IMG/VR virus record: IMGVR_UViG_3300033514_000261
Span: 1-33,072 of that record
Length of the DNA: 33,072 bases
Origin: a virus
Lineage: Duplodnaviria > Caudoviricetes
Strand: one strand, 5' to 3'
The number at the start of each line of letters is the position of its first letter. Within the stretch, counting starts at the first letter, position 1. The notes beneath the pieces are model-generated. The model was not told the origin of the DNA, ran no database searches, and worked only from the letters and a program-made list of their open reading frames with translations. The position numbers were made by a program, and so were the translations under genes. Positions 10,065-28,351 of this stretch are shown here, piece after piece.

Positions 10065-10103
10065 ATTTATTTAATATATAAATAAAAAAATAATCAAATT
10101 ATT

Positions 10104-13791: not shown

Positions 13792-13829
13792 TAGATTATA
13801 ATATATAAAGTATAGTTCTTTAAAATAAT

Positions 13830-14182
13830 GGCTTGGTGGTGAAATTGGTAGACACGCAGGACTTTATAACTAATTGATAATCAATGAGTTAAATAAATTG
13901 ATAATCAATATTATATGGAGTGCTAAAAGAGAAATCTTTTAAGTAGAATTTGTCAAATTCGGGGAATCCTTAACACATAGTGGTGATGGTAATCCCGAGC
14001 GAAGCATCTGTAAAAGGATGAACGTGTAGAGACTTAACGGCAAACACCTAAATAGAAATATATGGTGAAGAGAAAGTCCAGACTACAAATTTGTATGTAA
14101 AAATACAAAGCAGTGAAAACTGTAGTTAGTAAGAAAATCCTGTGGCTTCACGGCTGTGCGGGTTCAAGTCCCGCCCGAGCTA
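13830..14182 (+). tRNA. trnL: Intron-containing tRNA-Leu(UAA): exons 13830-13864 and 14134-14182
   Basis: Joining ...gcaggactt and aaaatcctgt... rebuilds cagga-ctTAAaa-tcctg; acceptor ggcttgg/ccgagct. Confidence 0.92.
13865..14133 (+). ncRNA. Group I intron (IC3-like), no ORF
   Basis: P aaattcggggaa, Q aatcccgagc, R gtagagacttaacgg, S aagagaaagtcc, terminal G; inserted at U^AA. Confidence 0.92.
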
Positions 14183-14197
14183 CAAAATTATTATAAA

Positions 14198-14443
14198 ATG
14201 AAAAAAATTTTTTTGTTATTTACATTTATATGTATAATAACTTCTTGTGAATCCAATAAAGTAACAGATAGAGAAATTGATACAATTGATTGGATATTAC
14301 TTTCTCCAAAACCTATTACTTGTGTTAGACTTGATACCACTGATAAAGAAATTCTTTACAATCTAACATATTCAAATGATACTTGTTCATATAATTATAT
14401 GACAGGATATATCAGATTAGATTTACCAGATACAATTAAATAA
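14198..14443 (+). CDS. Putative lipoprotein
   Basis: Start ATG 14198: MKKIFLLFTFICIITS-C lipoprotein-type signal. Confidence 0.65.
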   Translation: MKKIFLLFTFICIITSCESNKVTDREIDTIDWILLSPKPITCVRLDTTDKEILYNLTYSNDTCSYNYMTGYIRLDLPDTIK

Positions 14444-14468
14444 TTATTAACTTAAAATAAATAAAATT

Positions 14469-14750
14469 ATGGGAAAAATTACAGTAAGTGATGTGTATAA
14501 TTGGATGGAAGAATATGGAGAAGATCCTATTGTTGATGGTCCAATTGATTTAAGTGAAGAAGATGAACAAGAATTTTTGGAATCATTGGATAAGAATACT
14601 ATTGATGAAGATGACTTTGATTATTTGTTCCTCAATGGTGGTAGTGAAGATGAATACTTAGTAAATGCATGGGTTGACTTTTTGAATGAAAAAGAATATC
14701 CAAATGATTATCTTCTTGATGAAGATATGGATGAATTTGAAGATGAATAA
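14469..14750 (+). CDS. Highly acidic small protein
   Basis: Very D/E-rich 93-aa ORF. Confidence 0.7.
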   Translation: MGKITVSDVYNWMEEYGEDPIVDGPIDLSEEDEQEFLESLDKNTIDEDDFDYLFLNGGSEDEYLVNAWVDFLNEKEYPNDYLLDEDMDEFEDE

Positions 14751-14809
14751 TAAATTTGGTAAATTGAAAAAATAGTATTATCTTTGTAATCTAATTAAAT
14801 TTTAAAAAA

Positions 14810-15523
14810 ATGGGAAAACAACAAGACATTAAAATTCAAGAAATTGCACAAGATTTATTTAATCTTAAATTTGATGACCAAACTGGTATTGATAATTATT
14901 TCTTTGAGAAAATGTTTGATCAGTATTTAGGATTACATTGTAAGAATATTGAAAAATGGATTGATACTATTTTTGAAAAACAAACAGATAAAAAACGTTC
15001 ATATGGTGATATTGATTGGTCAGTGACCATTCTTAAAAATGATGATAGTAAAAGAGTATTATTTTTTGATAACCATGTAACTTGTGCCAGTGAAACAAAG
15101 TTTATTATAATTCAAGATGTCAGAAAAGATTATAAAAAAACTACACATTTCCGGATGGTTTGGAATAATTCAGATTATAAAAAAGGAAATCAATATGTAC
15201 ATAGACCTAATTTGAAATGGTATAAGGACAGAGGATTTGATCTGAATTTTAATGATAAATTACATATGACACCTCTTGGTGGTTCATATGGGGATTGTAG
15301 GGATCATGGTTTTTTAATGACTTTTAAGAAAGATATCCTTTCTAATATGTTAGGTGAAAGTTCAGATGATCCAGCAATTCAAAAAGTAATTGATTCTATA
15401 AAAGAATTTAATGAAGGAAGAGGGGATTATGATGTGGAAGATGGTTCTCTTTATAGATATAGTGAATTGAAAAGAGCAATATTTGATTTAAATTGTTCAG
15501 CAAATGAATTGAATAATAAATAG
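14810..15523 (+). CDS. Hypothetical protein
   Basis: ORF with promoter 14755-14786. Confidence 0.75.
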   Translation: MGKQQDIKIQEIAQDLFNLKFDDQTGIDNYFFEKMFDQYLGLHCKNIEKWIDTIFEKQTDKKRSYGDIDWSVTILKNDDSKRVLFFDNHVTCASETKFIIIQDVRKDYKKTTHFRMVWNNSDYKKGNQYVHRPNLKWYKDRGFDLNFNDKLHMTPLGGSYGDCRDHGFLMTFKKDILSNMLGESSDDPAIQKVIDSIKEFNEGRGDYDVEDGSLYRYSELKRAIFDLNCSANELNNK

Positions 15524-15590
15524 TTCTTTAAATAAATTTGGTATATTCAAAAAAGTTTGTTATCTTTGTAATCTAATTAAAACAAAAATT

Positions 15591-15884
15591 ATGAAAAACA
15601 TAACAAGAGCAACAGTAAAGAGTTTTATTAAGAAAAATAAAGAAAATCTTTTTATTAATGTTACATCTAGTTTTGATGGTATGGTAGATTGTTGTATGCC
15701 TCAAAAAGATGGTTTTGTAAAAGCCAAAGAAGATACACATAATATTGAGAATACTTTAGGAATTAATGGTGCTTGGTTTGTAGGTAGTAGCAGAGATTAT
15801 TTTACTGCTTATGATAAAAATGGTTTCGAAGGAATTGAAGTTTATAATTCCTGTGGTTGTTTTACTTTAGCTGTAAAAAAATAA
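15591..15884 (+). CDS. Hypothetical protein
   Basis: ORF with promoter 15537-15568. Confidence 0.75.
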   Translation: MKNITRATVKSFIKKNKENLFINVTSSFDGMVDCCMPQKDGFVKAKEDTHNIENTLGINGAWFVGSSRDYFTAYDKNGFEGIEVYNSCGCFTLAVKK

Positions 15885-15926
15885 TGAAAAATAAATAGTA
15901 TTAACTTTAAAAATAAATAAAAAAAA

Positions 15927-16157
15927 ATGGCACAAAAATTAGGAAAAGTAGTAAAAGATGTAGTAGGATACAAAGTTCGTATAATGTTGTCCAGTAAGAC
16001 ATCAGAAAAACCAGGTCGTGGTGATAAGGTTGTAAAGGTAACAAAGTTACTTGATAATGGTACTTTTGGTGTATATGCTGGTAAGAAGAAACTTGTAAAA
16101 AATGGTTTCAAATCAGTTGATGAAGCTACTACATATGTACTTGATAAAGTAGTATAA
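15927..16157 (+). CDS. Small basic protein
   Basis: K/V-rich ORF with A-rich leader. Confidence 0.7.
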   Translation: MAQKLGKVVKDVVGYKVRIMLSSKTSEKPGRGDKVVKVTKLLDNGTFGVYAGKKKLVKNGFKSVDEATTYVLDKVV

Positions 16158-16158
16158 T

Positions 16159-16218
16159 AAATATCCCTACCAATACTGTATATTTGTAGACCTACCCTCT
16201 TTATTGGTAGGGATATTT
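16159..16218. repeat. 17-bp perfect inverted repeat (possible terminator or processing stem)
   Basis: aaatatccctaccaata / tattggtagggatattt. Confidence 0.7.
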
Positions 16219-16233
16219 TTAAAACTTTAAATT

Positions 16234-16572
16234 ATGATAAATCAAACTATATTAAATGATGAAATCTTTTACCTTAAAAAAGTTAAGTACAAAGGTAATA
16301 TTCAAGATATAAAATTAGAATATTGCAAAGATGAAGAAGGAAACTATATTTATCTTGTACAAATTAGGATTAAGAAATCACAAAAGAATAAAGGTTATGG
16401 TTCATCAGTACTTTCAGAAGTTATTGAACTTGCAGATAAACATAATCTTAGAATTAAACTTTGGGCAACAGATGTATTTGGTGCTGATTTGAATAGGTTG
16501 ATTGAATTCTATAAAAGATTTGGATTTGTTTTATTGGAAGAAAATAAAATGGTTTATTATCCAAAAGAATAA
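16234..16572 (+). CDS. GNAT-family acetyltransferase
   Basis: QKNKGYGS acetyl-CoA motif A and FYKRFGF motif B. Confidence 0.8.
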   Translation: MINQTILNDEIFYLKKVKYKGNIQDIKLEYCKDEEGNYIYLVQIRIKKSQKNKGYGSSVLSEVIELADKHNLRIKLWATDVFGADLNRLIEFYKRFGFVLLEENKMVYYPKE

Positions 16573-16578
16573 TTGAAG

Positions 16579-16652
16579 GGGCCTTTAGCTCAGTTGGTCA
16601 GAGCGGCGGACTCATAATCCGAAGGTCGGGGGATCATGCCCCTCAAGGCCCA
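16579..16652 (+). tRNA. tRNA with CAT anticodon (Ile2-like or Met)
   Basis: gggcctt/aaggccc; cgga-ctCATaa-tccg; atypical T loop atcatgc. Confidence 0.8.
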
Positions 16653-16671
16653 CAAATTTAAAAAATTTAAA

Positions 16672-16893
16672 ATGGCTATACTAAATTTCCTATTTAAAGA
16701 AAAACACACATTTGATGAAAACAATCCTATTGTTGATGTAATAACAATAACAGAAGAATATCAATTATCAGGAAGGAAAGTAGTTAAAAAGATGATTGTT
16801 ACTGGATTTACTTGTACTAAATGTGGTAGAGTATTGTGGGTTGATAAAGAAGATTTAAAAAATGTTTCAGGTGAACAAAAATATTGTAAATAA
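16672..16893 (+). CDS. Small Zn-binding protein
   Basis: Likely start ATG 16672; CTKC motif. Confidence 0.6.
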   Translation: MAILNFLFKEKHTFDENNPIVDVITITEEYQLSGRKVVKKMIVTGFTCTKCGRVLWVDKEDLKNVSGEQKYCK

Positions 16894-16904
16894 AATTAAA
16901 TAAT

Positions 16905-17213
16905 ATGGGATTAAGAGATATAAAGTTTGGACCTGGAAATAATAATTATGGTCGTGATAAAGACTTAAGAGAAAATGATGAAGTTATGAATAAATTGAAA
17001 TCATTTGTTCAAAAAAGTACAATTAAACAATTTCAAGAAGAACTTAACAAATCTAAGGAAGAAAAAAAATCTGATGTTAAAATAGTTCTTGAATTGACTA
17101 AAGAAGAAGCAAAGGGATTGTTAAATTGTCTTGGAAGGACTATGGCTAAAGGTGATAATCTTACTATTGGAATGGAAATAGAAAATAGATTAGTGGAATT
17201 ATTAAAACAATAA
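16905..17213 (+). CDS. Hypothetical protein
   Basis: Operonic ORF. Confidence 0.65.
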   Translation: MGLRDIKFGPGNNNYGRDKDLRENDEVMNKLKSFVQKSTIKQFQEELNKSKEEKKSDVKIVLELTKEEAKGLLNCLGRTMAKGDNLTIGMEIENRLVELLKQ

Positions 17214-17216
17214 AAT

Positions 17217-17369
17217 ATGAAAAATCACAGATTATGTCCACATTGTTCTAATCTTATGTCAGGTTGTAAATATGGTTATAATTTAAAGATTTGTGAACCT
17301 AAATTAATGACTAAAACATTTTGTCCAATATGTTATAATATAAAAGGAAATTGTTCTTGTAAAAAATAA
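17217..17369 (+). CDS. 50-aa Cys-rich protein (not in ORF track)
   Basis: MKNHRLCPHC...CPIC...CSCKK; fills the gap between ORFs. Confidence 0.55.
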   Translation: MKNHRLCPHCSNLMSGCKYGYNLKICEPKLMTKTFCPICYNIKGNCSCKK

Positions 17370-17373
17370 AAAT

Positions 17374-17595
17374 ATGAAAGATATAAAAGAAGAAATATTT
17401 CATTTCATTTCAACACATGAAGCTATTGTATCTTATGAAATGCATAATAGAGATGAAAATATTAATGTTAGATTCACAACATTTGGTAATAAAGCAGGAT
17501 GTAGAGCAGTTTATGATGTCATTAGTCTATTAGATGAAGATACAAAAGCAAAAGTAATTGAAATGATGAGAAATAAAAGAGTTTCAGATAATTAA
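17374..17595 (+). CDS. Hypothetical protein
   Basis: Operonic ORF. Confidence 0.6.
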   Translation: MKDIKEEIFHFISTHEAIVSYEMHNRDENINVRFTTFGNKAGCRAVYDVISLLDEDTKAKVIEMMRNKRVSDN

Positions 17596-17741
17596 AAGAT
17601 TTCTGAAAATAAATTACAAAAAATTTGGAAAATAAATTAAACTTTTGTAATTTTGTATCCTAAATTAAAAACATCTTCTGAAAAAAGATAAGGTTCTTTA
17701 AAATGTTGAGTTAAATAGTTGAAGATTAAACAACTAAAAAG

Positions 17742-18172
17742 TTTTTTGAAAATAGTTCTCAAAAAATTTGGAAAATGAAAAAAGATGTTGTATCTTTGTA
17801 AAACAATTAGTTCTTTAAAATTATGAATATTAAGTAGTAATACTTAATCTACAAACATTAAGTTTGCAACCTCTAGGAATCGGTATGTTGCAGATGTAAG
17901 TATGCCACACTGAAACAAGACGCTGAAAGCCGATATATAGCCAAGTAAGGTGGTTTGGAGAGATATACCATAATTTTGAAATATGGTCTGAACGAATCCA
18001 TTGGGAGATTCAAAGATGATGAAAATTGTCTTCCTTTAAATAGGTACAAGTAAGGTTCAAATCCTAACCAGATCGCAAACAGTTGATAGTTAAACAACTG
18101 AAAGATTTTTTGAAAATAGTTCTCAAAAAATTTGGAAAATGAAAAAAGATGTTGTATCTTTGTAAAACAATT
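17742..18172 (+). repeat. 67-bp exact direct repeat containing a promoter (17742-17808 and 18106-18172)
   Basis: ttttttgaaaatagttctcaaaaaatttgg...tgtatctttgtaaaacaatt occurs twice. Confidence 0.9.
17985..18075 (+). ncRNA. tRNA-like element without a canonical anticodon
   Basis: ggtctg/cagatc acceptor, gaatc/gattc D arm, ggttcaaatcc T arm. Confidence 0.55.
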
Positions 18173-18509
18173 GGAAGATAAAATGTCTGATTGAAAAAAG
18201 AAAAAAGTTCTTAAAAATTTTGAAAATAATTTAAACTTTTATATCTTTATATAATATATAAACTCACCACCTAAAAATGGTGAAAAAAATAAAGAGAAAA
18301 AAGTTACAAAAAAATTGGAAATTAGAAAAAACTTTTGTATCTTTGTAGAATATAAAATTAGTTCTTTAAAATATTGGGATAAAATTAGAGCGAAAGCGAA
18401 GAAGAGTAAAGTAAACTGTTCTCTGTCTGAAAATAGGGTCAAGGTTTGTGAAAATCTTGTGAAAATATCAGATATAAAATCACTGATACGGATGTTGATG
18501 ATGATTATT

Positions 18510-19196
18510 TGAAACCGCAGGAAGTAAGTTAAGTTATCATATAAGTATGGTAATGTTTACCTGAAAGGGTAAAGTGGTTGAAACCAAAGGAAGTAAAGCG
18601 AGATTTGAAACTGCAAGGAGTAAATAAATGAAACTGGAAGGAGTAAAGTTTTTGAAATCAAGGAGAGTAAAGTTACTGAAATTGTAGGTTGTTTGTTTTT
18701 GAAACCGTAGAGAGTAGTAAAGTTGTTATACTCAGTATAACAATGTTTATCTGAAAAGATAAGGTGGTCGAAACCGTAGGGAGTAAAGTTACAAACATTA
18801 CAATGTAAGTTTTTGAAATCAAGGAGAGTAAAACAGTTGAAATCGCAGGGAGTAAAAGGATTGAAATCGCAGGGAGTAAAAGGATTGAAATCAAGGGAAG
18901 TAGGGAAACTGAAACCAAGGAGAGTAAAAGGATTGAAACCACAGAAAGTAAAAGGATTGAAATCGTAGGGAGTAAAAGGATTGAAATTGAAAGGAGTAAG
19001 GAAACTGAAACTGAAAAGAGTAAAAGGATTGAAACCGAAGAAAGTAAAAGGATTGAAACTGTAAGGAGTAAAAGGATTGAAATCAAGGGAAGTAAGGAAA
19101 CTGAAACCAAGGATAGTAAAAGGATTGAAACTGCAAGGAGTAAAAGGATTGAAACCGAAGAAAGTAAACAACAGTATTGAAATTCGTAGTAAGTAA
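18510..19196 (+). repeat. Array of about 24 TGAAA-N8-AGTA units; strict 24-nt period from 18814 to 19167
   Basis: e.g. tgaaa-tcgcaggg-agtaaaaggat, tgaaa-ccaaggag-agtaaaaggat, tgaaa-ctgcaagg-agtaaaaggat. Confidence 0.92.
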
Positions 19197-19214
19197 CTCT
19201 TTTTTATCTTATAT

Positions 19215-19381
19215 GGCCCGGTCGTCTAGCGGACAAAAATTATAACGAGGACTTTATGTGTTACTCAGTAGGATATAAAGTAGTTATAAAGGACAAAGCA
19301 AACCATTGATATGTATGGAAATACAAGGAGGTTGAGAAAAATTGTAAAAGCTTTACATAGGTTCGAATCCTTTCCGGGCTA
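19215..19381 (+). ncRNA. 167-nt tRNA-like RNA with large inserts in the D and anticodon loops
   Basis: ggcccgg/ccgggct acceptor; gtc..gac D stem; aaagc/gcttt stem; ggttcgaatcc T arm. Confidence 0.7.
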
Positions 19382-19382
19382 C

Positions 19383-19419
19383 AAAATGGAAAAAAGTGAG
19401 TTTTTTGTATGAATATATA
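19383..19419 (+). promoter_or_regulatory. Phage-specific promoter-like motif
   Basis: aaaatggaaaaaagtgagttttttgtatgaatatata resembles the capsid and protease upstream elements. Confidence 0.6.
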
Positions 19420-19444
19420 CATTCACCCACTTTTGGAAAAATAT

Positions 19445-19677
19445 TGTTCTTTGAAGATAGTTTGTTATAGGGATATAACATTAGTATGTAGGAGTGGCTA
19501 ATTCGTAAGGTAACGAGATACCTCTGGTAATTCTTAGGTCAGAAAAGGCGCTTGAAATCGACAACTGTTGGGTCCTAATGGGGAAAGTACATCAAGGTGT
19601 ATTTTGAAAAACCGAGAAATTGGTGTGTAGTTGCACCCTCTACTCGAACAGATATGCATAACTATCTTGAAAGAACA
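19445..19677 (+). ncRNA. Unassigned structured RNA domain, about 233 nt
   Basis: 17/18-bp closing stem tgttctttgaagatagtt/aactatcttgaaagaaca; interior richer in GC than the surroundings. Confidence 0.55.
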
Positions 19678-19689
19678 TCGTTCTTTGAT

Positions 19690-20659
19690 AATATTGAAAA
19701 GATAATATATGGTTCTAATCCTTATAGACCTTACCTGAAAGGGTAAAAGTTTGGGGATGAAACGCAAGAGTTGAACCTAAGTAGTATTAATCATCGTGTG
19801 TGATGATATCTTTCTTCGGAAAGAGCAAATAATGTAGGGTAACTTACAAAAGGGGGAGTCTCTCAACTTCCCACCAGGTCTTCGGATTTGGTTATAGCAC
19901 ACAAACTTCGTCTTTGTTGGCTACTAGTCAACAGATTCATCCGTAAGGACTGGATATAAGGAGTAAGTAATGAGTACATGGTTCTTTGGTAAGAATAAGT
20001 CTTGTAAGCCCCCAGTAATGGGTAAGGAGCAAGATGAATAAGGGGTGACACCCGCACCATTGCGTGTCAACATTATGAATTTGAAAGATAAGAAGTAGGT
20101 AATCTGTCAGAGTGTGGATAGCACAAAGGCTAATTATCAATACAAATGGTGAAAGGAGAAGTCCTGGAATCGTGAAGTATGGTACAGTAGGAATAATCAA
20201 CCGAAACGCATGTTTAGTTAAGTATTTTGTATGCCAAAATCTTATGAAGCTTTGTCTGAGCGCTAAACCGAGACCCTGATATTAGGGTTAAAATATCAAC
20301 TATCTTAAAAATTAATATGATAATTAAAATTTGATAAAAAGCAAAGACTCAGACAAGTATATGACGAAAGTCGTTTAAGTCTTGACATCTTCGGATGAAT
20401 CAAGATCATGGAAACTCGCAAGGTAGAAGTGTTTTATGGAAAGAAGCATCTAAGGGGTTAGCGCCTCTGAATGGCTCGCAAGGTCAAGAGAATTTTGAAC
20501 ATAGAGTAATCATATACTGATAGTGGAAAAGCTACCACTTAAAATAAAGCAACGTCGCTGATAGACTTCCATGAGGAAGTGGATAAGTGTAGAACCTTGG
20601 CCGCAAACTAAGGGTAATGACACGAAGGTATCGGTACTAAACCTGTAATCTCAAGGTTT
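19690..20659 (+). ncRNA. GOLLD-like giant RNA, copy 1 (5' end approximate)
   Basis: No credible ORF; many GNRA/UUCG hairpins; 3' domain gagta..gtggataag..acgaagg..aaacct-gtaatctca-aggttt resembles GOLLD as recalled; tRNA-cluster context. Confidence 0.7.
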
Positions 20660-20665
20660 TAAAAT

Positions 20666-20749
20666 AGTTCAGTCGTCTATTTTGGAGTACTTAATTTAAG
20701 TCAAGACACAATAACAATTGGAGATATGGTTCAAAACCTATCTGAACTG
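20666..20749 (+). ncRNA. tRNA-like element
   Basis: agttcag/ctgaact acceptor; gtct/agac D stem with inserted hairpin; minimal anticodon arm; ggttcaaaacc. Confidence 0.55.
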
Positions 20750-20947
20750 CAAAATCTGATACGTCCTAGTAACCTTGTGAAGTAGGTCATAGTCTTACGG
20801 TTATCATACCTACTTGACAATTTGGTAAATTAGATTTAGTAGTGAGTGAATCTGCTTTACGAAAATTCACCCTCTAAGAACATCATTCACTCTTAGGTTG
20901 ATGGTTGAAATGGGTAAGGAATACCATACATTCCAATAAAAACCACT

Positions 20948-21092
20948 ATGTTTAAAACCCCTTAAAAGGTATAGTAGTAATTTGTAATCAAGTAGCTCAG
21001 TGTTGAGAGCGGTCGAAAGACAGGTCAGTGGTTCAGCGCCATTCTTGAAAACAAATAATTATGTTTAAAACCCTTCAGAAAGGTATAGTAGT
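20948..21092 (+). repeat. About 31-bp direct repeat flanking a tRNA-like element
   Basis: tatgtttaaaacccc..aaaggtatagtagt at about 20948 and 21060. Confidence 0.75.
20986..21050 (+). ncRNA. tRNA-like element with a GAAA tetraloop replacing the anticodon loop
   Basis: tagctcag..gagc D arm; gtc-GAAA-gac; agtgg-ttcagcg-ccatt; tcaag/cttga. Confidence 0.65.
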
Positions 21093-21114
21093 GGTTTGTT
21101 TTGATTGTTCTTTG

Positions 21115-22022
21115 AATAATGATATTTCCTATGCTTGAATAGGAATCCGTAAGGAAGAGATAATATATCGCAAGATATAAAAAGGATAGACATCCATTTG
21201 TTTATTCACCTTAAATCCCAATTTAAGGCCAAATCAAGCAACTCCTTGCTCACCTTTACTGAAAAAGGGTTTCTCTTCGGAGGAAATAAGAGGAAGATAA
21301 GTTTTTAGGAACTTTGGAAAGTATGGAATTTCTTACTTGCCTGTAAAGGGAACAAGGGAAATTTAATAAGAACTGTGGTGGTTCACATCCTAGAATACCA
21401 ACCTTATCGTCTCAGAATTGTAAAAGGAAGATAGTAAAATAGTCCAAGTGATGCAAAAGTAAGGGCGACTATCAGTATTAAGGTTTTGAAAAGAATCTGA
21501 AATACCGCACAAGTAGGTTTAGCAGACTGAAAATGTAAGCTAAGGGTCGGATTTTGTTCTTCAAAAGAGAATGAAACGGTGAACAGGCACTTAGTAATGG
21601 AAAAAACAAGATTAGCTCAGTTGGCAGAGCGATTGGCTTCTAACCAATAGGTCATAGGTTCAAATCCTATAATTTGTAAAAAAGCGAAGTCCTGTTCAAC
21701 ATCAGTAAGAAAAGACGCTTAATTCTTGACATCTTCGGATGAATCAAGAGCAACTGAAACTCGCAAGGTGGATGTTGTTTGATGGAAAATCACACTTAGG
21801 GATTAATTATCTCGAACTGTCCGCAAGATAGGAGGCCGATTGAACATCGAGTAGTACTGGTGGTAATAAAGTTAGTCAATCTTTAAAATGGCAGCGTTGC
21901 TTGGCTAGACTATGATTGAAGGGAAACCTTGATTATAGTGGATAAGTAAAGAAAATAAAGAGTAGCATCTTTATGATAATGTTACGAAGGTGTCAAGTGA
22001 AAACCAGTAGTCTCATGGTTTT
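21115..22022 (+). ncRNA. GOLLD-like giant RNA, copy 2, with embedded tRNA (5' end approximate)
   Basis: 3' domain homologous to copy 1 (26-nt identity at 20380-20405 and 21724-21749); ends aaaacca-gtagtctca-tggtttt. Confidence 0.72.
21606..21678 (+). tRNA. trnR: tRNA-Arg(TCT) embedded in the GOLLD-like RNA
   Basis: attgg-ctTCTaa-ccaat; canonical D and T arms; weak acceptor stem. Confidence 0.8.
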
Positions 22023-22029
22023 AAATTTT

Positions 22030-22066
22030 AAACCCCTTAATCTTCCGAGGATTAAGGGGTTTTTTG
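22030..22066. terminator. Intrinsic terminator between convergent units
   Basis: aaaccccttaatc/gattaaggggttt plus T-run. Confidence 0.88.
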
Positions 22067-22843
22067 TTATTTTAAAGTTTTAATTCTTTCTGTTTGATAT
22101 TTCATTATATCAATATCTTTATTTTCTTTTAATATATTAATAATTTTAATAAACATATCAGTCATAATCCTACAATCAGTAAGGGCATCATGATAATTTA
22201 TCATACTTATATTAAGAGCAGGTCCAATCTTTGACATTGAAGAACTTATTAATCCAAAATCTCTTTCAGATGTTCCTATTGTTTCAATCATTTTTTTATA
22301 ATCTTCATCTGTTTCTGCTAATTTTTGTATTAGTGGAATATAATATAATTGAATGATTTGTTTAGTGTCTATTACTTCTTTTTCATATTTCCTACCATAT
22401 CTACCATTTAACATATTCATATCAAATGCAGCATTCTGAATGACAAATAAAGGGTTATTTTGCTCATCTATCCAACCATAAAATTCATCCAATACCATTT
22501 GTTCATCATAATATTTAGTGTCTTTTGTTCCATAGTGATTAAATGATAATACTTTTTTAATTCTTGAACCGGGTTCATTCATTTTTACTTTAGTTTCATC
22601 AGTTAATTTTATCTTTTTATTAAAAGAATCCTTTTCTGTGAAATCATTTGAATTAAAATTATAAATATTTGATATTGCAGATACTTGAGTTAATTGTTGT
22701 TTTTTATGTCCACCTAATCCAGTAGTTTCAGTATCAATAAATATCCAATCATTAACTGATTTACTTTCAATCCAATTTAAAAATTGATTAATAGATTTAT
22801 ACCATAATTTATGTTCAAGTAAAAAATCAGTATATTTAATCAT
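22067..22843 (-). CDS. DEDDh 3'-5' exonuclease (DnaQ-like)
   Basis: FIDTETTG, QNAAFD and YHDALTD; likely start ATG 22843 (MIKYTDFLLE). Confidence 0.85.
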   Translation of the reverse strand: MIKYTDFLLEHKLWYKSINQFLNWIESKSVNDWIFIDTETTGLGGHKKQQLTQVSAISNIYNFNSNDFTEKDSFNKKIKLTDETKVKMNEPGSRIKKVLSFNHYGTKDTKYYDEQMVLDEFYGWIDEQNNPLFVIQNAAFDMNMLNGRYGRKYEKEVIDTKQIIQLYYIPLIQKLAETDEDYKKMIETIGTSERDFGLISSSMSKIGPALNISMINYHDALTDCRIMTDMFIKIINILKENKDIDIMKYQTERIKTLK

Positions 22844-22902
22844 TGATAAATCTTTTTTCTTTATATATAAAAACTTTTTAATTATTTTATATAATAAATA
22901 GT

Positions 22903-24009
22903 ATGATAAATAATAAAACAATATGTCTTTGTTTAATAGTCAAGAATGAAGCTAAAGTAATTCATAGACTAATTAGGAGTTGTAAACATATCATAGATTA
23001 CTATGTAATATGTGATACAGGTTCAAGTGATAATACTATTGAAGTAATTAAAAAAGAAATGGGTGATGTTAAAGGTGAAATTCATGAAAGAAAATGGATT
23101 GGATTTGATGTTAACCGTACTGAATTAATGGAATTTGCATATAAGAAATCTGATTATCTTCTTATTGCTGATGCTGATGAAGAATTTCTAATTACTGATG
23201 ATTTTTATAAAGAAGATTTCACTTATGATTGGTATCATTTTAGATATGTAGGTGAGATGGATTATACAAGAATTCATTTAGTAAATGCTAATTTAAAATG
23301 GGTATATAAAGGCAAATTACATGAATATATTGATTCTGATGAATGTGGTGAAAGTTCAGAACTTAGTTCAATTACTACATTACATCATGATGATGGTAGC
23401 TCTATGTTAAGAGAAGATAAAATAAAAAGAGATATTGAAATATTAAAAAAAGCAATAATCAGTGAACCAAAAAATGAAAGGAATTATTTTTATCTTGGAC
23501 AAACATATTCAGATAATAAAGAGTATCAAAAGGCTATCATATATTATGAAAAAAGGGTGGAATTAGGTGGATGGGAAGAAGAAGTATATTATTCTATGTT
23601 TAAAATAGGAATTATGCATTATTATCTTAAAAATATAAATACAGCTATTATAAAATTATTAGAAGCTTATTCATATAGACCATCAAGATTTGAAACACTT
23701 TATATGTTAGGTATAATATATAGGGAACAAAATAAATATCATTTAGCTAGATTATTTCAAGTAGAATTATTAAATATGAAATATCCAAGTACTGATATAT
23801 TATTTATTGATAGAACAAGTAGGGATTATCTATCTGATTATGAACTTGCAATTTGTTATTATTGGATGGGTGATTATGAAACTGCTAAAGTTCATGCATT
23901 GGTAATAAAAAATAAGAAAGATGTACCGGAAGATATAGTTGAACAAAATGAAAAAAATTATAATTTTATAATAGATAAAATAGAAGAAATAAAAAAGGGT
24001 TCTCAATGA
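22903..24009 (+). CDS. Glycosyltransferase family 2 with TPR domain
   Basis: CLIVKNE, CDTGSSDNT, DADE and LHE; C-terminal TPR-like YFYLGQTY repeats. Confidence 0.88.
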   Translation: MINNKTICLCLIVKNEAKVIHRLIRSCKHIIDYYVICDTGSSDNTIEVIKKEMGDVKGEIHERKWIGFDVNRTELMEFAYKKSDYLLIADADEEFLITDDFYKEDFTYDWYHFRYVGEMDYTRIHLVNANLKWVYKGKLHEYIDSDECGESSELSSITTLHHDDGSSMLREDKIKRDIEILKKAIISEPKNERNYFYLGQTYSDNKEYQKAIIYYEKRVELGGWEEEVYYSMFKIGIMHYYLKNINTAIIKLLEAYSYRPSRFETLYMLGIIYREQNKYHLARLFQVELLNMKYPSTDILFIDRTSRDYLSDYELAICYYWMGDYETAKVHALVIKNKKDVPEDIVEQNEKNYNFIIDKIEEIKKGSQ

Positions 24010-25843: not shown

Positions 25844-28351
25844 TTACAAATTTTTAAATATGCTTAGGTATCTATCTACTTGATTTTCAGTTAATTTGAT
25901 ATCATCTACATATTTTTTATTTTCTGTAATAAGAGTTTTTTTAGAATCAGTATATTTACCTAATTCTCTACTATTCCAGAATGATTCCATTTTTAATTCT
26001 GACCCTACTAAGTTTGGATAGAACTTAGCTTGTGCTAATACACTTTTTTTAACTGTTGGATTTAGACTATTCCATGTTTCAACTAAGTCATTTGGAATAG
26101 AGTCAATTAGAACTTGTTCTTCTGATTTTTTATTAGAAGTTAATGATTCTCTTATGGCATTGAGAACTTCTTTTTCAGATGTATAGTTGCTTTCGTTTAA
26201 TGCAACTGTTGTTTTTTCCTTGTCTTCTAAACTTAATTTGTTCCAAGTTTCTTTATTTTTCTCAGATAAGAACATTAAGAAATGTGGTTGATTTTCTTCT
26301 GAAGCTTTTCTTTTTTTAGTTTCAGTGATAAGTTTAGCGATAGTATCTTTTATTGATATTTCTGATTCAAATACTTTGTCTCCTTTAATTCTAATTTTGG
26401 ATTCATGTACTTCTATTTCAGAAACTTCTTGTGCTTGTGGTTGTGCTTGTGGTTGTCCAACTGGTGCACCTTGTACTTGTACTTGTGCTTGTCCTGCTTG
26501 AACACCATCAACTTGTGCTTGTGCTTGTACTTCTGGTTGTGCTCCTGGTTGAACTTGAACTGGTTCAGCTAATTTTACAATTGCAAAACCGTCTTGTGGA
26601 TTAAATGAAATAATTTCACCATCTTTTTGTTCACCATTAACATCAATTTGTACCATTGTACCTGGAAGTAATGAAACATCACCATTTGCTTCTAAATCAA
26701 CTGGTTCTTCTGTTGCAACTGGTTCTTCAACTTCTGCATTAGGTGTTTCTACTTGTGCTTCTGGTTGTAATTGATCACCTTGTGCTTGTACTGGTGCTTC
26801 CATATTAACTTCTTCTTCCTCTTCTTCAATATCATTTAATTCTTCAGGAAGTTCAGTATCCATTGGAGGGAATTCTGAATCATTTTCATCTTCGTAGTAT
26901 TTATCTACATTATTAACTTTTAAGTCTGATATTCTTTGATCATCTTGAACATCTTCATTTAATTTTTCACCATTTACTAAATCAATAGTTTTATCAAGAC
27001 TTTCAGCAATGTATTTTGAATATGCTTGGTTATCGGCTAAATTTTCAGCAATGTATTCTGAATAAGCAATATTATTATCAACATGTTCTGCAACATATTC
27101 TGTATAATTAATATTATTATCAAGATGTTCTGATAAATATTCAGCATAAGCTATGTTATTATCAACTTGTTCAGCTACATATTCTGAATATTTAACACTA
27201 TTATCAACATATTCTGATAACATTTCAAAATTTTGTAAATTAGTTTCAGTATTTTCAGCAATGTATTCTGCATAATCAATAGATTTATCAAGGTGTTCAG
27301 CTAAATATTCTGAATATTTGATAGTTTTATCTACATTTTCAGCAACATATTCAGTAAAATCAATAGATTTACTTAAATTTTCAGAAATATATTCAGCATA
27401 ATCAATGTTTTTATCTACTTTACCAGCTAAATAATTAGAATAATTAATAGATTTTTCAAGATTTTCAGATAAATAATCACTGTGTTTAATAAGATTTTCT
27501 GATTGTGTTTTTAATGTTTGATTTTCATTAACTAAAATTTGAACATTGTCAGCTAAATAATCTAAATATTTAGTCATTTTACTGTAATTTTCCATAAGAA
27601 CATCATATTGTTCTTGTAATTTTAAAAATTCACTAGGGTTTTTTCCTTCTTTAATATTTTGCAAAAGTTCTTCCTTAATTTTGGCAGTTTCAGTTGCTAA
27701 ATATTCTGTGTATTCAGTCATTTGTGACTGTGTAACTTGGTCATTTTTATTCATGTCGAATAATTCATTAATTTTTGACTCGTTGGACATATCTACTATC
27801 CTTAAGTTTACTGATTCATTGTATTTTAGTGATTCATTAATCACATTGAGGTTCATTCTTGCTGATGCAAATCCAGGATCTGCCACAGCATCATAAGTGA
27901 ACAATTTTTTAACTGATACAGTACCATCTGATTCTGTAACACCAGCAGCTCTTGAAGATACGAATAAAGGACATCCATCTAATACTAATTCTTTAGCAGT
28001 CTTACCATTAGGTGTATTCAATAATCTTATTGATCCATCTACTCTGTTTTTTGATTCATTATAAGTAGCAGACTGAATTAAGTGAGATACTCTTGTTAAT
28101 GATGTGTCAAAAACATCTGGATGATCAAATTCCCCATAAACCACCCCTAAACTTTGAATCCTACCTTGCATCTCTAATAGATGGGGTAGGAAACGTTCTT
28201 TAGTATAAATTCTTTCATTTCTGTTTTTAACATCAAATTCTGTAAAAATACCAGAAAGGATAAATTTATCGCGTTTAATTTCAGATGCACTCTCATTTAA
28301 CATTAATCCACTAAGATTGCTTTCCATGATAAGTACGGGTTTCATTTCCAT
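25844..28351 (-). CDS. gp21: Prohead protease (gp21-like) fused to a scaffold/core region
   Basis: NRNERIY, GEFDHP, VSH, VSSRAAG and DAVADPGF; then 14-aa YxEY[LIV][AS]E repeats and an acidic/Q-rich linker. Confidence 0.88.
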   Translation of the reverse strand: MEMKPVLIMESNLSGLMLNESASEIKRDKFILSGIFTEFDVKNRNERIYTKERFLPHLLEMQGRIQSLGVVYGEFDHPDVFDTSLTRVSHLIQSATYNESKNRVDGSIRLLNTPNGKTAKELVLDGCPLFVSSRAAGVTESDGTVSVKKLFTYDAVADPGFASARMNLNVINESLKYNESVNLRIVDMSNESKINELFDMNKNDQVTQSQMTEYTEYLATETAKIKEELLQNIKEGKNPSEFLKLQEQYDVLMENYSKMTKYLDYLADNVQILVNENQTLKTQSENLIKHSDYLSENLEKSINYSNYLAGKVDKNIDYAEYISENLSKSIDFTEYVAENVDKTIKYSEYLAEHLDKSIDYAEYIAENTETNLQNFEMLSEYVDNSVKYSEYVAEQVDNNIAYAEYLSEHLDNNINYTEYVAEHVDNNIAYSEYIAENLADNQAYSKYIAESLDKTIDLVNGEKLNEDVQDDQRISDLKVNNVDKYYEDENDSEFPPMDTELPEELNDIEEEEEEVNMEAPVQAQGDQLQPEAQVETPNAEVEEPVATEEPVDLEANGDVSLLPGTMVQIDVNGEQKDGEIISFNPQDGFAIVKLAEPVQVQPGAQPEVQAQAQVDGVQAGQAQVQVQGAPVGQPQAQPQAQEVSEIEVHESKIRIKGDKVFESEISIKDTIAKLITETKKRKASEENQPHFLMFLSEKNKETWNKLSLEDKEKTTVALNESNYTSEKEVLNAIRESLTSNKKSEEQVLIDSIPNDLVETWNSLNPTVKKSVLAQAKFYPNLVGSELKMESFWNSRELGKYTDSKKTLITENKKYVDDIKLTENQVDRYLSIFKNL

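Follow-up and report, generated by a model that had tools for sequence, protein, structure and literature searches.

A probably transcribed array of short GAA/AGUA units in a T4-like phage fragment, with likeness to the crRNA 5' handle

Genomic setting

The window analysed here, the whole 33,072-nt stretch of viral DNA in record IMGVR_UViG_3300033514_000261, derives from a T4-like phage, of which it is a 33-kb fragment; portal, protease and capsid were found among its open reading frames (ORFs). Its major capsid protein shares 61% identity with that of a 735-kb phage record, whose clade (Mahaphage) is described in the available text of PMC7162821 as the largest phages of that study, with predicted Bacteroidetes hosts. 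Judged by sequence, the array-bearing phage is likely a Mahaphage-like megaphage infecting Bacteroidota. The spacers of 56 CRISPR-region loci gave zero matches to the phage. No cas, Nop or reverse-transcriptase family was found among 32 ORFs of the 33-kb fragment compared with PHROGs and 30 compared with Pfam. The prohead protease (25844-28351) is 835 aa long and contains a 42-nt/14-aa repeat region and a Q/V-rich linker, as does that of L046, the closest relative found.

Around the array, 4.4 kb contain no credible genes; tRNA-like folds, one GOLLD RNA and a second, GOLLD-like one share this stretch with it. The features of this region, in window coordinates, are as follows.

18315..18345, + strand: Bacteroides-type promoter-like site, TTKG ... 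TAnnTTTG, 1 of 10 such sites in the window
18361..18369, + strand: GTTCTTTRA element, with 9 copies in the window, 6 of them within 17690-21110
18388..19210, + strand: predicted non-coding RNA of ~820 nt spanning the whole array, its start taken from contig starts and its 3' end inferred from the U-rich tail
18391..18408, + strand: degenerate head unit with an N9 core, C-GAA-G retained
18510..18595, + strand: module A, made of a unit, an 8-bp hairpin, a 7-bp GAAA hairpin, an 11-nt tail and a unit
18606..18690, + strand: units at 18606, 18629 and 18653 with loose spacing, then a truncated unit at 18677
18700..18785, + strand: module B, a diverged copy of module A, with hairpins at 18723-18743 and 18746-18763
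18814..19166, + strand: tandem block of 15 units with a 24-nt period and a 96-nt higher-order repeat
19178..19210, + strand: degenerate tail unit and U-rich end, which may pair weakly with the 5' leader
19214..19384, + strand: tRNA-like fold with a long insertion, uncalled by ARAGORN (folding z -3.07)
19730..20657, + strand: GOLLD RNA (Rfam 3' domain at 20212-20657)
21140..22062, + strand: second GOLLD-like RNA (129 bits, below the gathering score) with an internal tRNA-Arg and a terminator-like hairpin after it

All 10 promoter-like sites of the window are on the + strand, and one stands just 5' of the array. The motif is enriched in the Bacteroides nordii genome (84 versus 9 in the reversed control), and no enrichment was seen in one Chitinophagaceae genome (11 versus 9) or in three CsrA-bearing Bacteroidota genomes checked. 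A sigma-70 promoter scan remained at chance level (18 versus 15.8). The GTTCTTTRA element, which we take to resemble an antitermination boxA, also stands 5' of other RNA genes of the cluster.

Several smaller observations concern the same region. Three promoter-like sites fall within 600 nt 5' of the array, and a stretch of ~110 nt, holding a small hairpin and a promoter-like site, is duplicated at 17693-17840 and 18080-18170. The motif AATATATAHA precedes RNA genes at 10073, 13800, 18253 and 19412, is also found in L046, and is a candidate phage late promoter. Further tRNA-like elements with long insertions, likewise uncalled by ARAGORN, lie at ~17885-18078 (z -0.44) and 13825-14183; such elements also flank GOLLD in L046.

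Anatomy of the array and coding test

A preliminary description, made from the sequence alone, had reported about 24 TGAAA-N8-AGTA units starting at 18510, and recounting bears out an array of this kind. The window holds 22 copies of the motif where 1.27 are expected and 100 shuffles reach at most 5; 21 of these copies fall on the + strand at 18510-19166. One CGAAA unit at 18769 brings the N8 units (YGAAA-N8-AGTA) of the array to 22, to which three degenerate units are added, at 18391 and 19178 (N9 core) and at 18677 (without AGTA). The start at 18510 has to be given up: the element reaches ~120 nt further upstream. Fifteen units at 18814-19150 are spaced by exactly 24 nt, as had been described, and the looser spacings 5' of this tandem block are 69, 27, 23, 24, 47, 69 and 45 nt. 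The tandem block is 77% purine, and 10 of its junctions read AAGGATTGAAAY.

GAA and AGTA are invariant in 22/22 N8 units. The cores between them, described earlier as variable, comprise 17 distinct sequences but are strongly constrained. They read Y Y R N R R R and then R in 21/22, with one T at position 8 (YYRNRRRN overall), which amounts to 8.2 of 16 bits. A covariation previously missed links positions 2 and 6, which form C:G in 16/22 and T:A in 6/22 with zero mismatches. This low entropy and internal covariation rule out a guide or spacer role of the cores.

The + strand frame that reads IExxxSKR was correctly described as startless with a stop upstream: no stop interrupts it for 123 codons beyond the TAA at 18806, and it contains no ATG, GTG or TTG. 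GAA (15/15) and AGT (15/15) show no synonymous change in it, and the units 5' of the tandem block are spread over all three frames. These observations support a non-coding array.

The two GAAA hairpins mentioned in the preliminary description are located at 18556-18573 and 18746-18763, within modules A and B. In module A, the 8-bp hairpin at 18534-18553 precedes the 7-bp hairpin at 18556-18573, and the 11-nt tail ends TTGAAAC. All 8+7 and 9+7 pairs of the two modules are retained though their letters differ, with G-U pairs and GAAA loops of the GNRA type. A third version of the module appears in RNA contigs (joint 18975 to 18734). In strain L082, unit number and order differ though the sequence downstream is 99% identical (2987/3007). 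In the RNA contigs, the 18786-18813 linker bears three strain changes that are not compensatory (read by eye). As an additional observation, the GAAA hairpin of the modules occurs again at 19731-19746, the start of the GOLLD transcript.

Presence in RNA libraries

Twenty public sequencing runs hold part of 17600-22100, 8 of which are RNA. Four RNA runs from three studies were compared. Contigs covered both array bins in 4/4 of these metatranscriptomes, at summed depths of 61 and 125 in run X4 and 1-13 in the other runs. By comparison, 10 of 11 bins in 14401-18009 and 22421-23623 (tRNA-Met bin excluded) were at 0-0.18, as were flanking-gene bins save at tRNAs and the capsid gene; the runs were chosen via 17600-22100, so these bare flanks are a weak control. 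The second GOLLD-like RNA (21140-22019) was also covered. The contigs derive from ~98% identical relatives and cannot give true ends, strand or level; they start at 18388 in run X10 and 18396 in run X4. In X4, the array and GOLLD contigs both start with a remnant, presumably adapter, on the same side, which hints weakly at + strand transcription. Contigs of 477-491 nt span about the first nine units, which indicates that much of the array RNA is uncut.

Because contigs cover the array while the flanking genes are almost bare, the array is likely an RNA of ~820 nt. The earlier reading of the array as non-coding RNA is supported, and we consider it probably a functional non-coding RNA of some kind. 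A further non-coding segment at 19420-19680, after a GTTCTTTRA element, also has RNA contigs in X4 and X10 and no Rfam match.

Predicted fold

At 22/22 junctions and in 12/12 junction types, the nucleotide that follows AGTA pairs with the one that precedes the next GAA, and a second linker pair is present in 9/12 types. The closing pair switches from A-U to G-C at the sole CGAAA unit and in CT linkers. Pairing of core positions 2 and 6 across units is worse than within them (4 mismatches in 21). Only one layout is predicted to retain both pairing signals, a string of beads in which a 17-nt hairpin (R-AGUA, two pairs, tetraloop, GAA-A) alternates with a 7-nt triloop hairpin (YY-RNR-RR). Scored over the 16 of 22 units that have 8-nt linkers (15 distinct), this layout has 90% of its cells paired and is matched by 3/500 shuffles, a control that related rows such as these units can outscore; two other registers are 85% paired and were reached by 127 and 135 of 500 shuffles. 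Shuffled units show the bulged-G layout in 0.9% of cases.

GAA-AGUA is the bulged-G motif, recognised by proteins and toxins according to the available text of PMC5737476. The earlier pointer to the loop E/sarcin-ricin motif survives to this extent, as GAA and AGUA with covarying closing pairs fit a bulged-G motif; a faithful copy of the sarcin-ricin loop is not present. The covariation comes from few events: in a spanning tree of 16 edges and 25 changes, positions 2 and 6 each change once, and both on one edge, so that this may be a single event. Thermodynamic folding of the whole RNA equals that of shuffles (z -0.04). A helix closing the leader with the tail is only suggestive in this modelling: the tail is the leader's best partner within 1.3 kb (-15 kcal/mol), and 203/2000 shuffles do as well in a related test.

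Likeness to the crRNA 5' handle

Recurrence of the crRNA 5' handle in the units, claimed previously, was checked against Bacteroidota CRISPR repeats and holds in part. Three ATTGAAAY at CRISPR-like spacing occur in 86/301 Bacteroidota genomes and in 0 of the reversed control; by our own count of the table, 73 of the 86 have three or more matches. Repeats ending CAAGGATTGAAAC adjoin type I-B cas genes in 2/2 genomes checked, and repeats ending GAGGATTGAAAC adjoin type III-A genes in 1/1, cas genes being confirmed for these three repeat-bearing genomes only. Among 25 recovered repeat consensus strings, 19 end GGATTGAAAY, a biased sample whose patterns were derived from the array; the handle match is partly circular because the compared repeats were picked with those patterns.

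The type I-B 5' tag is AUUGAAAC (PMC3479195, available text), and in the I-B handle of Haloferax a changed base at -8 and a C-to-U change at -1 are tolerated (PMC4326828, available text). Ten of 23 junctions match I-B repeat ends, with the last 12 nt exact and 15/17 overall, and count as about one event because they are near-identical recent copies. GGATTGAAAY appeared in 0.03% of 200,000 trials with shuffled units. The shorter UUGAAAY (TTGAAAY in DNA) is retained in 18/24 units, where handle variation follows the changes tolerated in Haloferax I-B, and position -1 is C or T in 22/22 N8 units. The proposed handle likeness is thus upheld for this tag and for the 12 nt of ten junctions, and falls short for the full 8-nt handle ATTGAAAY, which is found in 11/24 units and only 2/12 junction types. 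In modules A and B, a 7-bp stem is followed by an 11-nt tail ending GAAAC, like the I-C-like repeats recovered (by eye), 11 nt being what we take to be the I-C handle length.

No array match extended over a whole CRISPR repeat, and Rfam CRISPR repeat models gave none at E up to 5. The string AGTAAAA-N0-4-GGATTGAAAY gave only single matches, in 8/301 genomes, with AGTA outside the matched repeats. Short-period GATTGAAAY repeats in 24 other viral stretches were simple or coding, 9 of them in GVMAG contigs, and none of the 24 had a similar architecture. For owners of the best-matching repeats, the phage promoter motif was unenriched in G189 (1 versus 0) and G149 (11 versus 8), which may therefore not be the host lineage; a third, G286, gave 22 versus 8.

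A possible decoy for CRISPR effector proteins

We tentatively propose that the array RNA is a multivalent decoy for host class 1 CRISPR effector proteins, since GAAAY, the tag of crRNA 5' handles, closes every unit; we regard this as possible, short of probable. Transcription would proceed on the + strand from the upstream Bacteroides-type promoter, and the 24 units are predicted to fold as bulged-G hairpins alternating with triloop mini-hairpins. The dominant unit would expose GG|AUUGAAAY in a loop, 8 nt before the tag end, where Cas6 or another RNase may cut. Such a cut would free 24-nt RNAs that begin with the handle and have just 16 nt more. Cut or uncut, the putative decoy would hold Cas5/Cas6/Cas7 (or Csm4/Csm3) in dead-end complexes common to types I-B, I-C and III-A. 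Precedents are the Racrs (PMC10651486), arrayed viral crlRNAs (10.1101/2024.10.29.618823) and pseudo-ToxI repeat expansion (PMC3475682), each as described in the available text. The fuller version is doubtful. In it, an abundant polymeric RNA of ~24 beads, each showing the I-B/I-C/III handle in a bulged-G hairpin, is diced to 24-nt guide-less pseudo-crRNAs and serves against several class 1 types together as a broad, copy-number-tunable anti-CRISPR of undescribed architecture.

Further observations argue against the decoy, besides the scarcity of the full handle, the lack of an Rfam repeat match, the simple GATTGAAAY repeats elsewhere and the uncut RNA contigs. The handle reading has no account of AGUA, invariant in 22/22 units; the predicted fold pairs the UU of the handle; the tandem units are without a canonical Cas6 hairpin; and the closest relative (capsid 76%) is syntenic yet without the array. 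In addition, the handle of a type I-F Racr alone is non-inhibitory and the Cas6 stem-loop is required (PMC10651486, available text). Known RNA anti-CRISPRs each copy a single complete repeat from one system. If the decoy reading is true, a concatemer of handles would inhibit several class 1 types in compact form, and would help account for the way T4-like Bacteroidota megaphages deal with arrays present in more than a quarter of sampled genomes of that phylum. Were the target not Cas, tandem bulged-G beads, here next to GOLLD, would still be an undescribed repeat architecture, short and synthesizable.

Alternative explanations

In a close rival to the decoy, the bulged-G (sarcin-ricin-type) hairpins would form a string that sponges another host protein, the handle match being incidental. 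Candidate targets are a translation factor or a toxin directed at rRNA from an abortive-infection system. This sponge accounts better than a CRISPR decoy for the invariant GAA and AGUA. The motif-adjacent pair in every junction type with its compensating G-C, the frequent second pair and the advantage of the beads layout over other registers also speak for it. We consider it somewhat unlikely all the same: it names no target, its covariation comes from few events among related units, the folding z is near zero, and a 23S loop from Bacteroidota combines a single pair with a GAGA loop, GAC and an outer stem, whereas the array units show two pairs with AGGA/GAAA loops and are without an outer stem.

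A structural or scaffolding partnership of the array RNA with the GOLLD and tRNA-like RNAs, in a self-assembling or phase-separating structure, is improbable. Clustering, promoter type and GTTCTTTRA elements are common to array and GOLLD, the module hairpin recurs at 19731 where the GOLLD transcript starts, GOLLD forms cages (PMC12286853, available text) and short RNAs can form filaments (10.64898/2026.07.01.735769, available text). However, the array is missing from the syntenic relative that retains GOLLD and from 3 more GOLLD-motif loci (2 aligned to GOLLD), and the purine bias of the tandem block leaves little to pair. Near-neutral slippage expansion within a transcribed RNA cluster seems similarly improbable. 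It would suit an array found only in near-identical strains, with unit order differing between them and non-compensatory changes in the 18786-18813 linker; the 17 distinct cores with invariant flanks and no 2-6 mismatch, the compensated hairpins of modules A and B, the array's own promoter and the RNA contigs all speak against it.

Very unlikely is a CsrB/RsmZ-like sponge for CsrA. ANGGA occurs 29 times versus 7.9 in dinucleotide shuffles (max 15 in 500 shuffles) and in 19/22 units, and in the dominant linker an ANGGAX loop sits on a pair, which is the form that CsrA binds with high affinity (PMC4005645, available text). Yet GGA is not invariant, its register shifts, and 14% of shuffled units hold such a loop. 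CsrA itself was found in just 27/201 sampled Bacteroidota genomes and is encoded in 0/3 related megaphage genomes; the 3 CsrA loci inspected (L155, L156, L157) are flagellar and fliW-csrA-like, with fliW/mot-like neighbourhoods, in genomes without enrichment of the phage promoter motif.

An array of DNA binding sites (partition, packaging or repressor) transcribed by chance, which the preliminary description had offered as its alternative, now has a very low likelihood: the fixed 17-bp frame and exact 24-bp period would suit it, but palindromic symmetry is absent, GNRA-capped hairpins with G-U pairs are compensated, and RNA contigs start just 5' of the array. Equally improbable is a type III antitoxin mimic like pseudo-ToxI: a phage repeat RNA whose copy number differs between strains would resemble that case (PMC3475682, available text), but ToxI units are 36-nt pseudoknots, the array has 24-nt, 77% purine units with stems of at most 2 bp, and no Rfam antitoxin matched it. 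A repeat-protein gene or its remnant is of negligible likelihood, for although the period is a multiple of 3, with the 123-codon + frame and - strand frames of 204 and 145 aa from TTG, the + frame is startless, upstream units lie in three frames, GAA/AGT never vary synonymously, and the covariation ties a third codon position to a first one.

Comparison with known systems

The published systems below are compared as described in the available text of each source. Racrs (PMC10651486) are, like the array, phage non-coding RNAs with their own promoter and no cas genes nearby; the array has the 18315-18345 promoter-like site and no cas genes alongside in the 33-kb fragment. Racrs share sequence with host CRISPR repeats, to which the likeness of the array is confined to repeat ends. 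A Racr is a solitary whole-repeat mimic that needs a Cas6 stem-loop, whereas the array strings together 24 copies of only the 3' 7-17 nt, with invariant AGUA and its own covarying pairs. With 22-25 tandem units and no Cas6-type stem in them, it is not a canonical Racr; only modules A and B hold a 7-bp stem before an (imperfect) handle tail. Cracr/crlRNA arrays (10.1101/2024.10.29.618823) share the form of a multi-unit phage RNA with handle-like sequence and carry 2-3 distinct spacers matching cas or toxin promoters. In the array, most of the 16-nt stretch that follows the handle is fixed (8.2 bits vary), and its constrained 8-nt cores, without unique spacers of guide length, exclude it as a CRISPR or Cracr array.

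Pseudo-ToxI of phage TE (PMC3475682) likewise combines tandem repeats, copy-number change and possible mimicry of a host RNA, in 36-nt pseudoknot units as against 24-nt purine-rich units with 2-bp stems. The array may act like a Racr or pseudo-ToxI yet belongs to neither class. CsrB/RsmZ RNAs (PMC4005645) are also purine-rich with many GGA in weak hairpin loops, and the array has the many ANGGA in loops expected of them; it differs in that GGA is not the invariant part and that the likely host lineage is mostly without CsrA.

The sarcin-ricin loop (PMC5737476) shares with the units the order of AGUA and GAA about a short stem with a capping loop, and bulged-G strands closed by pairs are found, at the sequence level only, in 22/22 units. 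The array has two pairs rather than one, no GAGA loop, no outer Watson-Crick stem and 22 copies. A strict sarcin-ricin mimic was rejected for want of a GAGA tetraloop one pair from the motif and of the outer stem, and the array shares zero 11-mers with the compared part of a Bacteroidota 23S locus. TIGR arrays (PMC12045711) resemble it as phage tandem arrays with short variable segments between fixed flanks, and differ in their 36-nt dual-spacer units, UG/CCA boxes and Nop-domain gene (PMC12045711, PMC12385481). The 24-nt units, single constrained core, missing UG/CCA pair and lack of a Nop match in 30 ORFs rule out a TIGR array. No Rfam family matches the array, and no such array is described in the titles and abstracts searched in the open literature.

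Distribution and other arrays

Other copies of the array were found only in near-identical strains: a metagenome scan gave 5 stretches, one of them strain L082. IMG/VR scans for three units, two units, variable cores, modules and handles returned 25, 15, 40, 0 and 24 stretches with no homologue, the matches being simple repeats, coding repeats, chance and one unrelated gut-phage array. A genome scan gave 8 stretches and no homologue, and blastn against phage records matched the promoter region only. Two adjacent units occurred in 0/5 large related genomes, five related contigs had only 15-25-nt matches to the array, and none of 36 capsid-anchored loci held a unit cluster; the scanned collections may omit genomes very near that of the window. 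L046 (capsid 76%) retains the small gene, promoter, tRNA-like element and GOLLD in this order, without the array. This narrow distribution restricts how far the covariation evidence reaches and how broad the finding is.

Two other arrays came to light. Eleven gut siphophage contigs carry a purine-rich non-coding array with AGTA and GAA elements at a period of ~28 nt, without an Rfam match and by eye non-homologous to that of the window. Its place is between the genes for the major capsid protein and the next head protein (L016:3897-4350; also in L004, L006, L011, L013, L014, L017-L020 and L023). The second, at L033:2946-3313 in another viral contig, is a non-coding tandem array that repeats every 27 nt and shows internal inverted symmetry; it lies 5' of a tRNA-like element.
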